From Patescibacteria group bacterium (lineage in GTDB: Bacteria > Patescibacteriota > Patescibacteriia > Patescibacteriales > UBA12075), in contig JAHILH010000001.1 in the NCBI GenBank assembly GCA_018897195.1, positions 28,565-92,564 of the forward strand: a stretch of DNA of 64,000 bases, read 5' to 3'. Shown here one piece after another: positions 29,959-38,240 of the stretch. The position numbers and the translations under genes were made by a program. The notes under the pieces are model-generated. The model was given only the letters and a program-made list of their open reading frames with translations. It did not search any database and had not been told where the DNA came from. Position 1 is the stretch's first letter; each line of letters begins with the position of its first letter.

Positions 29959-30065
29959 GTCATATCGAACGAAGTGAGATATCGCTTCGACTACACTATT
30001 TCATAAAAAGAGAATGATTTTAGTAGTTGAGTATAAGCGATTTCTTCGTTTCACTACGAAATGAC
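29959..30065. mobile_element. family B' repeat (B5), inverted relative to B1, between atpZ-like gene and atpB
   Basis: GTCATATCGAACGAAGTGAGATATCGCTTCGAC ... AAGCGATTTCTTCGTTTCACTACGAAATGAC. Confidence 0.85.
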
Positions 30066-30094
30066 AAAAAATAATGATTGAAAATAATTAAAAT

Positions 30095-30982
30095 ATGTCA
30101 AATCAAGTCGAACAACATAATGAAGTCCAGGAAATGCCTGAAGCAACAGAGGTGGCAGGGACACATGAGACACAAACAAAATCTGAACATGGACACACTC
30201 TTTATGCTGAAGAAGTTGCCAATGTTGGTGGTTTTCCAATTACTAATTCTATGATTAATACTTGGATGGTGGTGGCGGTTGTGTTGATTTTTGGCTTATT
30301 TATCAGAAAAAGAATAAAGGAAGTGCCAACTGGCTTGCAAAATGTGATGGAAATGGTGGTTGAGGGGTTTTTGGGGATTTTTGACTCGGTGACTAGTTCT
30401 CGAGAGAAGTCTTTGCAGTTTTTTCCGTTTGTATTTAGTTTTTTTATTTTAATATTATTGAACAACTGGATGGGCTTGTTGCCTGGCATTGGTTCAATCG
30501 GTAAAATGGTTACCGAAAATGGGCACGAAGTATTCGCGCCTTTTTTTAGAGGTGGCACTGCTGACTTGAATACAACTTTAGCTTTAGCGATTATTGGTGT
30601 GGTGGCGAGTCACATTTTTGGTGTGGTGGCCTTGGGTTGGTGGCGTTATTTGAATAAGTTTGTTAATATTAAAGCGATTTTGGATATTCCAAAGAAAGTT
30701 ATGAAAGATCCGACCGTGTTGATTGTAAATCCGATTCATGTATTTGTTGGCTTGATTGAAATTGTGGGCGAAATTGCCAAAGTAGCTAGTCTTTCTTTCC
30801 GTTTATTTGGAAATGTTTTTGCTGGTGAAGTTTTATTGGCGTCGATGGCAGCAATCCTGGCTTTTGGTTTACCGATTCCGTTTATGTTTATGGAGGTAAT
30901 TGTTGGTGTAATTCAGGCGTTAATTTTTGCTATGTTGATTTTGGCATATTTGACTATGAGCACAACATCAGAAGATCATTAA
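30095..30982 (+). CDS. atpB: F0F1 ATP synthase subunit a
   Basis: LSFRLFGNVFAGEVLL signature with essential Arg; multi-TM. Confidence 0.9.
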   Translation: MSNQVEQHNEVQEMPEATEVAGTHETQTKSEHGHTLYAEEVANVGGFPITNSMINTWMVVAVVLIFGLFIRKRIKEVPTGLQNVMEMVVEGFLGIFDSVTSSREKSLQFFPFVFSFFILILLNNWMGLLPGIGSIGKMVTENGHEVFAPFFRGGTADLNTTLALAIIGVVASHIFGVVALGWWRYLNKFVNIKAILDIPKKVMKDPTVLIVNPIHVFVGLIEIVGEIAKVASLSFRLFGNVFAGEVLLASMAAILAFGLPIPFMFMEVIVGVIQALIFAMLILAYLTMSTTSEDH

Positions 30983-30989
30983 TTTTCTT

Positions 30990-31084
30990 GTCATTCTGGA
31001 GCGAAGCGATAGAATCTTCGACTACGTAAAAAACGTACAAAGTGAAAGGTTCTATCACTGCACTTCGTTTCGTTCCAGAATGAC
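30990..31084. mobile_element. family B repeat (B6), between atpB and atpE
   Basis: GTCATTCTGGAGCGAAGCGATAGAATCTTCGACTACG ... GGTTCTATCACTGCACTTCGTTTCGTTCCAGAATGAC; starts 8 nt after atpB stop. Confidence 0.9.
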
Positions 31085-31168
31085 AATAAATTATTAATAT
31101 ATAATATAAACTAAAATTTCAAAATTACTTTGACACTAGTCAAAATAATCTGAAATTTAACAAGTAAT

Positions 31169-31381
31169 ATGGAAAATGTAATGTTTGCCAAGGCTATGGC
31201 CATTGGTATTGGTTCAATCGGACCCGGCTTAGCTATTGGTTTTATCGGCGCAAAAGCGATGGAAGCGATTGGTCGTAATCCAGAAGCAGCGGGAAAAATC
31301 TTGGTGCCTATGCTTTTAGCAGCAGCGTTTGCAGAAGCTATTGCTATTTACGCTTTGGTAATCGCTTTTGGTATCAACTAA
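31169..31381 (+). CDS. atpE: F0F1 ATP synthase subunit c
   Basis: 70-aa hairpin proteolipid; GRNPEA loop; [15 protein letters not shown] with carboxylate. Confidence 0.9.
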
Positions 31382-31441
31382 TTAGTGATCTGACGAACTC
31401 CGACTCTAGGTCGGAGAGGCTAGATTATTAACTATTATTTT

Positions 31442-31930
31442 ATGGAAAGTTTAATTTCAACATTTCACATCGACGTCAGAATCTTAATCGCCCAAGCGGT
31501 AAATTTTGGTATCGTTTTTAGTATTTTATATTTCTTTGCTTTGAAGCCTTTGATAGCAACTATGAAAGACCGAACAGAAAAGATTGAGAAGAGTATTAAC
31601 GATGCTAAGCATATTGATATTAAATTGGCTGAGACAAAGGAGAATTACCAAAAGACAATCATGGAGGCCAGAAAAGAGGCTGGTGAATTATTGGAAAAGG
31701 CGCGTCAAGAATCTGAGATTCGCAAGCAAGAAATGGTTAATAAGGCTAAAGAAGAGATTGGTGTGATTATTAATCAAGAAAAAGAAACAGTTCGTGAAGA
31801 AAAGACACGCGTGATTAAGGAAATTAAAAAAGAAATTGCAGATTTGGTAGCCTTGTCGATTGAGAAGATTTTGGAAGAGAAGATGGATATCGCGAAGGAC
31901 AAGGAAGTTATTAAGAAAATCATTAGTTAA
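31442..31930 (+). CDS. atpF: F0F1 ATP synthase subunit b
   Basis: N-terminal TM then long charged helix; operon position. Confidence 0.85.
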   Translation: MESLISTFHIDVRILIAQAVNFGIVFSILYFFALKPLIATMKDRTEKIEKSINDAKHIDIKLAETKENYQKTIMEARKEAGELLEKARQESEIRKQEMVNKAKEEIGVIINQEKETVREEKTRVIKEIKKEIADLVALSIEKILEEKMDIAKDKEVIKKIIS

Positions 31931-31952
31931 GATAACAAACAGTGTTGGCAGA

Positions 31953-32139
31953 CTCCCTCGCCCCGGCGGGAGAGGGTCGGGGTGAGGGGTGGTCGGATGA
32001 GAATAGTAAGTAAAAAGTTTATTAAAATAAAATCAGTGGTGAATCGCTTGTATAGCGCACGGAAAACTACCTCACCCTGTCCCCTTTATTATTGTTCGGA
32101 CGAGGATTACGTTAACCCTCTCCTGGCAAGGAGAGGGAA
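31953..32139. mobile_element. family A repeat, full copy with extra ~40-bp insertion in right end (A7), between atpF and atpH
   Basis: Left CTCCCTCGCCCCGGCGGGAGAGGGTCGGGGTGAGGGG ... CACGGAAAACTACCTCACCCT[insert]AACCCTCTCCTGGCAAGGAGAGGGAA. Confidence 0.85.
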
Positions 32140-32150
32140 CTTAAATTGTT

Positions 32151-32552
32151 ATGAAAATTTCCCTAAAAAAATACGCGCAGGCGTTATATGAAGCGACGGC
32201 GGACAAGAGCGAAGCGGAGGTGAAGCTTTATGTTAAAAATTTCGTGAAAATCTTGGCGGAGAACAAGGATTTAAAAAGAGGAGAATTGATTGGTAAGTAT
32301 TTTTCTAAAGCTTGGAATCGCGAGAATGGCATAACTGTTGTTGATGTGACGACAGCGCAAGAGACGGATAAGGAAACCAAGAAGGCTTTAAGCGAATATG
32401 CAATTAAGTTATTAAATGCTGACAAGGTAGTGATTCGTGAGAAGGTTGATAAGGATATTTTAGGTGGCGTCATCATTAAGAATGGTGATATGGTTTATGA
32501 TGGTAGTTTGCGAACAAGAATTCATAATTTAAAAGAGCAAATGGTTAAATAA
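32151..32552 (+). CDS. atpH: F0F1 ATP synthase subunit delta (short form, 133 aa)
   Basis: [12 protein letters not shown]-terminus and [27 protein letters not shown]-terminus typical of OSCP/delta; operon position. Confidence 0.8.
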
Positions 32553-37090: not shown

Positions 37091-37110
37091 TCACAAGATA
37101 TTATATAACA

Positions 37111-37141
37111 CAAAAGACACTCAATCGAGTGTCTTTTGTTA
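37111..37141 (+). terminator. atp operon terminator
   Basis: 12-bp stem CAAAAGACACTC/GAGTGTCTTTTG then TT. Confidence 0.8.
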
Positions 37142-37599
37142 TATGTAAATTTTTTGAAAATATATTTATCGTCGTATAGGAAAAAGCAGGACACGTTTTT
37201 ATTTTTGTGTTCTGCCTTTATGTTTGTTTTTTTTCATATCACACCGCATTGTAATTGCAGCGATGATAATCTTGAATACAATCCCATTTTTGAGATCGTG
37301 TCATTCTTGAGTAGAAGCGACTTACTCTGAGTACTCGAACTATGCTTAATAGAAGTCTGCCACTTATAGTTGTCATGATAATCCCTCCTGCTGGTTGAAT
37401 GATAATGAAAGAACAACTTTTATATAAATCTATTATACCATATTTACGGAAAAAGTCAAGTATTTTTGGCGATTTTTTACCTAATATTAGTAAGCAGGGC
37501 TAATATTAAATCTTAATTAGGTCTTAATGTTGATAACCTGTGGGTTAAATGTGGGGAAAGTTGGGGATAACTTTTGAGAAATTTATTTAAAAAAAATGC

Positions 37600-37627
37600 T
37601 TGACAGCGGCTTTAAAAATGGTAAAAT
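37600..37627 (+). promoter_or_regulatory. groESL promoter
   Basis: TTGACA-16 nt-(TGg)TAAAAT. Confidence 0.7.
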
Positions 37628-37637
37628 GGAGAGAGAT

Positions 37638-37664
37638 TTAGCACTCTTAAGGTTAAAGTGCTAA
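37638..37664 (+). promoter_or_regulatory. CIRCE element (HrcA operator)
   Basis: TTAGCACTC-N9-AAGTGCTAA, one mismatch to consensus TTAGCACTC-N9-GAGTGCTAA; 11 nt after -10. Confidence 0.85.
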
Positions 37665-37697
37665 TGAAAAAATCAAATTTTAATTATGAATATATTT

Positions 37698-37792
37698 GTC
37701 ATCCTGGAGCGAAGCGATAGGATCTTCGACTACGTATAAAACGTACAAAGCGGAAGATTCTATCACTGCACTTCGTTACGTTCCAGAATGAC
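37698..37792. mobile_element. family B repeat (B7) in groES 5' leader
   Basis: GTCATCCTGGAGCGAAGCGATAGGATCTTCGACTACG ... GAAGATTCTATCACTGCACTTCGTTACGTTCCAGAATGAC; near-identical to B6. Confidence 0.9.
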
Positions 37793-37807
37793 AGAACAAA
37801 AAAATCT

Positions 37808-38098
37808 ATGAACATAAAACCATTACATGATCACGTGGTTGTTAAACCAGTAGTTGAAAATGAAATGACGGCTTCTGGAATTGTCTTGCCCGGAACCATC
37901 GACAAGGAAAGACCGGAGCGAGGAGAGGTGATAGCAATCGGCGAAGGTAGGTTTTCGAAGACTGGTGAGCGCATTCCAATGTGTGTTAAGGTTGGCGATG
38001 TGGTTGTTTTTAAAAATTATCCCGTTACTGAGATTAAGATTGATGGACAGGATTTGCTTGTTGTTAAGGAGGAAGATATCATGGCGGTAATAAATTAA
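37808..38098 (+). CDS. groES: co-chaperonin GroES
   Basis: IKPLHDHVVVKP...TASGIVLP...GEVIAIGEG; upstream sigma-70 promoter and CIRCE. Confidence 0.95.
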   Translation: MNIKPLHDHVVVKPVVENEMTASGIVLPGTIDKERPERGEVIAIGEGRFSKTGERIPMCVKVGDVVVFKNYPVTEIKIDGQDLLVVKEEDIMAVIN

Positions 38099-38117
38099 TT
38101 AAAAGAGGATATACAAT

Positions 38118-38240
38118 CTCCCTCGCCCCGGCGGGAGAGGGTCGGGGTGAGGGGTTGTCGGAAGAGTGTTGTGCTTAAAAAGAATATTTTGTGCACGGAA
38201 AACCACCTCACCCTAACCCTCTCCTGGCCAGGCGAGGGAA
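38118..38240. mobile_element. family A repeat, full copy (A9), between groES and groEL
   Basis: CTCCCTCGCCCCGGCGGGAGAGGGTCGGGGTGAGGGGTTGTCGGAAGAG ... CACGGAAAACCACCTCACCCTAACCCTCTCCTGGCCAGGCGAGGGAA. Confidence 0.9.

Follow-up and report, generated by a model that had tools for sequence, protein, structure and literature searches.

Hairpin repeats in the atp and groESL spacers of a Patescibacteria genome belong to two intergenic classes described in other bacteria

The REP/BIME, REPIN/RAYT, ERIC and Correia repeats are short extragenic palindromes which occur singly or as inverted doublets, are often co-transcribed within operons and vary from strain to strain. Here we analyse six elements of comparable appearance in a stretch of 64,000 nucleotides (nt) from a Patescibacteria group bacterium (contig JAHILH010000001.1 of assembly GCA_018897195.1, positions 28,565 to 92,564; hereafter the window, to which all coordinates refer). 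The six occupy spacers of the ATP synthase (atp) and chaperonin (groESL) operons, and a sequence-only reading had described them as insertions resembling miniature inverted-repeat transposable elements (MITEs), either tolerated only in spacers or co-opted as mRNA elements that tune subunit stoichiometry. We consider it probable that they represent two classes of intergenic hairpins which are unrelated to each other and had been described before, that they were inserted recently in these spacers, and that they are passengers rather than conserved regulators.

The first class was described by Holder et al. (2015, PMC4666352) as TM_ECO, with the pattern CCCTCNCCC-N3-6-GGGNGAGGG-N3-GGGNGAGGG, and is the same as the potential intrastrand triplex (PIT) motif. 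It counts 3,610 occurrences in 262 proteobacterial genomes, always intergenic, with frequent inverted pairs formed by a type B arm on the plus strand and a type A arm on the minus strand. In E. coli it shows no orientation bias, with 23 motifs in the 4.6 Mb of K-12. These authors found no link to known mobile elements, associated the motif with local sequence instability, strain-variable regions and deletions retaining a hairpin, and related an earlier study in which PIT motifs had neither promoter nor terminator activity in E. coli (PMC4666352). The same sequences were treated by Doluca et al. (bioRxiv 10.1101/032615) as the HPG1/HPG2 G-quadruplex-hairpin motif, located mostly between tandem genes and near the ends of open reading frames (ORFs). 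The second class is known from Neisseria, where the 28-nt NTS repeat, CGTCATTCCCGCGMAVGCGGGAATCYRG, is the target of SsnA, a single-domain GIY-YIG nuclease of 94 amino acids (aa) which cuts single-stranded DNA only (Chenal et al. 2025, PMC11893778). SsnA and NTS together lower the integration of transforming DNA in Neisseria, and bacterial ssn genes typically lie between hairpin repeats of their own, a layout which the authors call 'identical to' insertion sequences (PMC11893778).

All six elements of the window lie where they had been reported, inside spacers of atp and groESL genes that profile searches confirm:

B5, 29958-30067, plus strand: begins 12 nt after the stop of the atpZ-like gene; atpB starts 27 nt further
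B6, 30989-31085, plus strand: begins 6 nt after the atpB stop; atpE starts 83 nt further
A7, 31953-32144, plus strand: begins 22 nt after the atpF stop; atpH starts 6 nt further
A8, 36523-36646, plus strand: begins 23 nt after the atpD stop; atpC starts 24 nt further
B7, 37697-37793, plus strand: in the groES leader, 32 nt after the CIRCE operator and 14 nt before groES
A9, 38118-38241, plus strand: begins 19 nt after the groES stop; groEL starts 35 nt further

We regard the six as insertions because spacers of these operons are short in distant relatives and four of the elements are missing in near ones. Across 18 more distant relatives the atpF-atpH spacer normally measures 0-8 nt (220 nt in the window), the atpD-atpC spacer 8-33 nt (171 nt) and the groES-groEL spacer 25-108 nt (178 nt). 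They are part of a larger population: the window has 8,879 nt of intergenic DNA, of which 27 repeat loci account for 3,083 nt, or about 35%, and the A and B families also occupy spacers of unrelated operons across it. None of the 27 loci falls inside confident coding sequence, which agrees with the idea that such elements are tolerated only in spacers.

As RNA, the elements are predicted to fold well. With Watson-Crick pairs only and z scores taken against shuffled sequences, the fold of whole elements reached -31.7 kcal/mol for B5 (z -4.1), -46.5 for B6 (z -9.2), -60.2 for A8 (z -5.2), -39.1 for B7 (z -6.9) and -76 for A9 (z -8.5); the value for A7 (z -4.1) refers to its left arm of 38 nt only. 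A terminator scan found no intrinsic-terminator-like site within the six, and their co-transcription as stable hairpins is likely. B6 and B7 are 93% identical, A8 and A9 82%, and for B5 an inverted copy at 14899-15013 shows 78% identity.

The membership of the A elements is carried by the published TM_ECO pattern itself, which has nine exact matches in the window for 0.00 expected. Three of them are at 31955-31988 (the left arm of A7), 36525-36558 (A8) and 38120-38153 (A9), and the right arms of the family are degenerate type A copies on the opposite strand. In A8 and A9 the type B arm on the plus strand and the type A arm on the minus strand are 53 nt apart; A7 has kept its left arm intact, and its right arm is interrupted by an insertion of about 34 nt. 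A blastn search with A8 hit about 1,200 E. coli chromosomes over 37 nt with 89% identity, the matching sequence being a motif of the lldD-trmL spacer; it also retrieved a complete unit of left arm, spacer and right arm on an Azospirillum plasmid. Judged by sequence, each of the three, A7, A8 and A9, consists of two TM_ECO/PIT motifs in inverted orientation. The likeness covers the exact pattern and both arm types (type B, …GGGTCGGGGTGAGGG; type A, …GGGTTAGGGTGAGGG), the inverted pairing on opposite strands at about 50 nt in E. coli and in the window, the strictly intergenic position, mostly between tandem genes near ORF ends, the neighbourhoods that vary among related strains and the internal deletions that keep a hairpin. 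Solo left arms and internally deleted A copies also occur in the window. The differences are that the host is an AT-rich member of the Patescibacteria, whereas the 262 published genomes are proteobacterial, that the window is far denser (9 exact matches in 64 kb against the 23 of E. coli K-12), that its copies have a uniform orientation, unlike those of E. coli, and that they are located within essential operons. Since the TM_ECO family is defined by sequence, the non-proteobacterial host extends its range and leaves the membership untouched. The sequence GGGAGAGGGTCGGGGTGAGGGG contains four G-tracts, and a triplex or G-quadruplex at this place is to be read as a potential only. A conserved extension to the left of the A arms might have explained the loss of the atpF-atpH spacer in relatives; only weak similarity was found there. 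At another site, 28022-28080, between prfA and a tRNA-Lys gene, there is a variant palindrome made of TM_ECO-like C-rich and G-rich blocks (TCTCCCTCGCCCCGCC…GGGGTGGGGCGAGGGAG).

For the B elements, the key is a cassette situated 10 kb upstream of them in the same window, in which a gene resembling ssn is surrounded by hairpins:

21002-21050, plus strand: forward hairpin arm, 5' of the ssn-like gene, GTCATTCTGGAAGGAGCGGATGCGACTGATAGAATC, which aligns with the arms of B6 and B7
21055-21351, plus strand: ssn-like gene for a 98-aa single-domain GIY-YIG protein (Pfam PF01541, E 3.5e-11)
21356-21408, minus strand: reverse hairpin arm, 3' of the ssn-like gene, with 80% identity to the B6 right arm
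21422-21473, plus strand: additional forward hairpin arm, from a frame scan

The protein is 37% identical to the sole homologue of N. gonorrhoeae (tblastn E 6e-11 with 88% coverage; BLASTP 8e-20), around whose ORF lie seven exact copies of the NTS, and both tblastn values lie within the limits used to call ssn genes (E < 1e-10, coverage > 75%; PMC11893778). Its residues Y9, Y20 and E68 align with the catalytic Y6, Y17 and E64 of SsnA (PMC11893778). NCBIfam gave only a weak match to a group I intron endonuclease, and the comparison with solved structures gave no significant sequence match. The arms of B6, B7 and two further copies (19230-19362 and 57327-57422) align with the arms flanking the ssn-like gene, and because of this alignment B6 and B7 look like gene-less miniatures of the hairpin-ssn-hairpin cassette (21002-21473). 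The arms of B5, GTCATATCGAACGAAGTGAGATATC on the plus strand and GTCATTTCGTAGTGAAACGAAGAAATC on the minus strand, came from a generic frame scan. This frame, GTC followed by a palindrome beginning and ending with AT and then by C, occurs 25 times in the window for 1.2 expected in random sequence. Following the frame GTC/AT-stem-loop-stem-AT/C, we identify B5, B6 and B7 as inverted pairs of Ssn-related hairpins, B5 belonging to a subfamily which has kept the frame but diverged further, and the ssn-like protein as the probable cognate partner of the B-type arms.

Similar arrangements exist outside the window. Homologues of ssn were found in three other Patescibacteria gene contexts (contigs L097, L098 and L099), each flanked by its own arm variants, and a 27-nt B arm is present in more than 116 metagenome contigs of 31-56% GC, often as inverted pairs of 68-124 nt and, in 4 loci, 10-62 nt from ssn homologues. 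A blastn search of plasmids with B6 gave no match. In a relative, the ssn cassette is 85-95% identical and its flanks are 64-91% identical, a comparison which is not decisive for recent transfer. The B class therefore resembles the Ssn/NTS system of Neisseria in having a single-domain GIY-YIG homologue of SsnA of about 95-100 aa with the catalytic residues kept, a gene flanked on both sides by hairpin repeats, GTC on the 5' side and C on the 3' side of the palindrome, and many gene-less copies, often in inverted pairs as in the neisserial intergenic mosaic elements. It differs by its stem, which is another one and weaker (ATTCT…AGAAT with a variable interior), and by its host, Patescibacteria being a name absent from the main text of PMC11893778; the nuclease activity and the effect on transformation seen in Neisseria are putative here. 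Promoter-like hexamers were also noticed in B arms (TTGTCA-16-TAGAAT at 30988-31015 and 37696-37723), with another set, ATGACA-16-TAATAT, at the right end of B6 (31080-31107) facing atpE; the counts of such promoter-like sites in the region are only slightly higher than in shuffled sequences.

The NTS itself is also present in the window. It forms the terminal hairpins of a third family of repeats, C, of about 170-215 nt, which match the 28-nt Neisseria consensus CGTCATTCCCGCGAAGGCGGGAATCCAG; it occurs 4 times without a mismatch and twice with two mismatches, always in family C, for none expected by chance. The family C repeats are the following:

264-438
26803-26972
43356-43528
46766-46981
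50100-50289
55907-56095

Two NTS-type hairpins, at 50102-50149 and 56053-56100, have the same loop insertion of about 24 nt (GTCCCCAGTCAAGCTGAGGATAAACCTCCGGC), which suggests a composite or nested repeat. Elsewhere, at 12954-13167, three copies of a palindromic unit of about 31 nt (GACTTAAGTCCAGAGTTCTCTAGACTTAAGTC) precede a gene for an ECF-type sigma factor (13464-14015).

These assignments bear directly on the label 'MITE-like', which is adequate as a description, the elements being small, non-coding, intergenic and bordered by terminal inverted repeats, and does not extend to target-site duplications or a transposase in the window. Direct repeats at the 27 loci measured 0-1 nt, apart from a few matches of 2-6 nt such as arise by chance in AT-rich flanks, and the comparison of empty with filled sites in relatives revealed no clean duplication. 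Pfam scans of the window ORFs tested, minus-strand and small ones included, detected no transposase domain, and no Y1 (RAYT) transposase was among the ORFs scanned. Classic MITEs, that is to say deletion derivatives of insertion sequences mobilised by a transposase, of the DDE or another type, whose gene lies outside the window, would account for the terminal inverted repeats, the length of 97-190 nt, the multiple copies and the presence/absence polymorphism. With such direct repeats and no transposase domain in the ORFs tested, with A arms that occur singly, each being a published TM_ECO unit by itself, and with a GIY-YIG nuclease encoded by the sole longer unit that has B termini, we hold this explanation to be highly improbable. 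The ssn cassette has the same termini as B6 and B7, and no such cassette was found for the A family in the 64-kb window. The REP/BIME, REPIN, ERIC and Correia families offer a parallel in their single or doublet palindromes, often within operons and variable among strains. Similarity of sequence to them is nevertheless absent, and the entire window, when scanned against Rfam with gathering thresholds, matched no family; neither the TA duplication nor the RNase III evidence of Correia elements applies to the window elements, and the RAYT that would go with REP/REPIN is missing from the ORFs scanned.

The comparison of the same operons in relatives, which had been proposed as a check, was performed on contigs encoding an AtpF or AtpC 81-94% identical in amino acids to that of the window, which were recovered and aligned, and it revealed variable occupancy at the six sites. 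The only other assembly found, L001, is 100% identical to 26671-37104 of the window and is probably the same assembly, not an independent confirmation; the source contig behind it ends at the atpC terminator. At the B5 site, L086 has a spacer of 24 nt and L082 an unrelated stretch of 75 nt. The B6 site is empty in L088 and filled in L082 and L086, at the same point, by a 318-nt insert with an ORF of 66-68 aa; this ORF (9365-9571 in L082, 999-1199 in L086) begins MTMSMGMPEM… and has a strong Shine-Dalgarno sequence. In L082-L087 the DNA equivalent to 31931-32149 of the window, with A7, is missing, which leaves the TAA of atpF, a single T and the ATG of atpH. L088 has a homologous left arm at the A7 site, followed by about 900 nt of other DNA with two small ORFs and a B-like element; the ORFs (1704-1976, 90 aa; 2026-2241, 71 aa) are cysteine-rich and have ribosome-binding sites. 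At the A8 site, the closest relative, L093, has only CTCCCTCGCCCCGGCGGGAGAGGGAAC, which fits a deletion between the two GGAGAGGG repeats, and L094 and L095 have an unrelated element of the GTCATCCTGAGCG type. The place of B7 is taken in L093 by a stretch of 39 nt, in which there are a small hairpin and an AGGGG Shine-Dalgarno-like motif, and at the A9 site it has an internally deleted form, CTCCCTCGCCC/GAAAACTACCTCACCCTAACCCTCTCCTG. By these alignments, B5, B6, B7 and A7 are lineage-specific, A8 and A9 are shared but decaying, and the atp and groESL spacers are hot spots of turnover. Many of the more distant relatives show expansions of their own in other atp spacers, filled with unrelated, genome-specific palindromes. 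Such atp-spacer palindromes were seen in the Falkowbacteria-like contigs L007 (6866-6980), L011, L014 and L003, examples being the AT-rich 'attcgtagtattcg' and 'aaaatcaaaatgcaaaat' types and a GC-rich perfect hairpin of 115 nt. As to the A repeats of the close relatives, a right arm follows atpH in L086, at a place without one in the window, and the contigs L086 (end 2533-2574) and L093 (end 2141-2190) stop inside A-type repeats.

It is on this variability that the interpretation first proposed divides: tolerance in spacers holds, and the 27 of 27 loci outside confident coding sequence and the six variable sites are in its favour, but conserved co-option is not supported. Co-opted elements would be co-transcribed RNase processing sites, 3' stabilisers or translational attenuators, as REP/BIME, ERIC and Correia elements can be, and would set the ratios of the ATP synthase subunits and of GroES to GroEL. 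Several features speak for such a role: the hairpins are very stable and terminators were not found within them, the subunits encoded next after A7 and A8, delta and epsilon, are single-copy ones, the TAA-T-ATG stop-start junction of relatives is disrupted by A7, B7 takes the place of the leader that carries the AGGGG ribosome-binding motif in L093, and the A family is uniformly oriented in the window. The closest relatives nevertheless lack four of the six elements and have the other two internally deleted, and unconserved occupancy in related genomes is what the sequence-only reading had itself named as counting against co-option. Moreover, other lineages have unrelated inserts in the same spacers, the same families fill the spacers of unrelated operons throughout the window, B6 precedes c, the most abundant subunit, which fits attenuation poorly, and PIT motifs were without promoter or terminator activity in E. 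coli, as Holder et al. (PMC4666352) recount. We judge regulatory co-option to be distinctly improbable, and incidental effects on mRNA may still occur.

A function for the host could also be exerted at the level of DNA. Ssn-related hairpins, and possibly triplex motifs, might mark essential operons for the cutting of incoming or displaced single-stranded DNA and so limit replacement by transformation, like the NTS-gene-NTS arrangement in Neisseria meningitidis; the elements would then be devices of recombination control and not junk. The presence of an ssn homologue conserved at the same site in a relative, the reduced integration of transforming DNA caused by SsnA and NTS in Neisseria (PMC11893778), the exact NTS sequences of the window and the B-type elements in both operons are compatible with this idea. 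The elements are nonetheless scattered over many ordinary spacers instead of being concentrated on these operons, their occupancy is not conserved among relatives, the A family has no known protein partner, and both the competence of the host and the activity of its Ssn are only presumed by analogy. For these reasons we consider a host function of this kind rather unlikely.

Insertion of passengers from two described classes remains the explanation we prefer. The family identity of both classes, the insertion relative to relatives, the restriction to non-coding DNA and the instability can all be read from the aligned sequences, and such a restriction, combined with rapid turnover between relatives, fits DNA-level repeats which survive where they are harmless. 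Both classes would spread and decay at the DNA level, the B class probably via a hairpin in single-stranded DNA plus the Ssn nuclease or recombination. They would persist only where reading frames stay intact, which in a compact genome means the spacers of operons, and there they would be passively co-transcribed as stable hairpins, any influence on mRNA decay or translation being a side effect and not a conserved function.

Several observations weigh against this explanation. The 10 asymmetric A copies of the window all have the same direction (10/10), and this uniformity could reflect selection tied to transcription or replication rather than neutrality. A7-like DNA is found at the same site in L088 and is missing from L082 and L086, although these two are closer to the window, a pattern which needs loss, repeated insertion or recombination. 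The closest relative also has its A8 and A9 sites occupied, which indicates some persistence. A transposition mechanism is demonstrated for neither class, Ssn being a nuclease and not a proven transposase (PMC11893778). Finally, the degenerate SRM expression HGTCWYN(0-2)YYVSBRHN(0-5)WNVSBRGN(0-2)RNCYNB has 7 matches in the window, all of them in family C and none among the arms of B5, B6 and B7; because of this we treat the B arms as a variant and not as a strict match, and they keep the GTC/AT…AT/C frame, in a way comparable to NTSvar versus NTS in PMC11893778. A more specific version of the spread can be proposed, in which the hairpin-ssn-hairpin cassette is a mobile element and Ssn, acting on single-stranded DNA, inserted gene-less miniatures (B6, B7 and their relatives) into operon spacers; we put it forward tentatively, as possible though doubtful. 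A further possibility within this version is that the hairpins so placed act as fences round essential operons and restrict the replacement of genes in an episymbiont which naturally scavenges DNA.

The landmarks of the two operons, which together span 29.6-39.9 kb and are separated by a gap of 717 nt, were all recovered at the places first given for the atp promoter, the terminator and the CIRCE operator. The genes of both regions were called by NCBIfam and Pfam profile searches:

29614-29642: promoter-like site of the atp operon
29704-29945: atpZ/I-like gene
30095-30982: atpB
31169-31381: atpE
31397-31416, plus strand: small hairpin (ctccgac…gtcggag) in the atpE-atpF spacer, additional to the six elements first listed
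31442-31930: atpF
32151-32552: atpH
32585-34111: atpA
34116-35090: atpG
35117-36499: atpD
36671-37090: atpC
37101-37148: terminator hairpin of the atp operon, after atpC
37600-37627: promoter-like site of groESL
37638-37664: CIRCE operator, TTAGCACTC-N9-AAGTGCTAA
37808-38098: groES
38277-39923: groEL

The small hairpin between atpE and atpF is shared with L086, and at this place L082 has other hairpins and L088 a palindromic element of 136 nt. The ATP synthase delta subunit encoded by atpH has 133 aa and its profile match starts at about position 58; a shortening of atpH by A7 was considered and rejected, as the delta subunit is short with a full-length alignment in all relatives, in most of which the atpF-atpH spacer is 0-8 nt. 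Between atpC and groES, a small minus-strand ORF of about 53 aa (37225-37386) is preceded by AGGAGGG and could not be aligned with L093; in L095, too, atpC is followed by a small ORF on the minus strand, equipped with a ribosome-binding site. In terms of kinship, the genome stands near Candidatus Falkowbacteria: the best AtpG relatives among species-level genomes are 58-64% identical and are named Patescibacteria or Candidatus Falkowbacteria. The GC content of the genome is 38%.

Our search of the literature on MITEs or palindromic repeats in Patescibacteria, or the Candidate Phyla Radiation, found nothing relevant, and neither of the two repeat classes was found reported from Patescibacteria. 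Both are mainly known from Proteobacteria, and they now appear at high density in a tiny AT-rich genome of the candidate phyla radiation, even within its ATP synthase and chaperonin operons. The filled, empty and decayed sites of close relatives constitute a natural series on the origin and decay of such repeats. Since the L086 and L093 contigs end inside them, these repeats may fragment short-read metagenome assemblies. For annotation, the six elements are a warning that hairpins of these kinds in essential operons are not necessarily regulatory. The termini which B elements share with the ssn cassette give concrete support to the published idea that NTS-ssn-NTS units resemble insertion sequences (PMC11893778). 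If the cassette were indeed mobile, it would be the first case of a GIY-YIG enzyme of the Ssn type driving MITE-like amplification, and the near-identical NTS and TM_ECO sequences of Patescibacteria and Proteobacteria would represent a spread of repeats across phyla.

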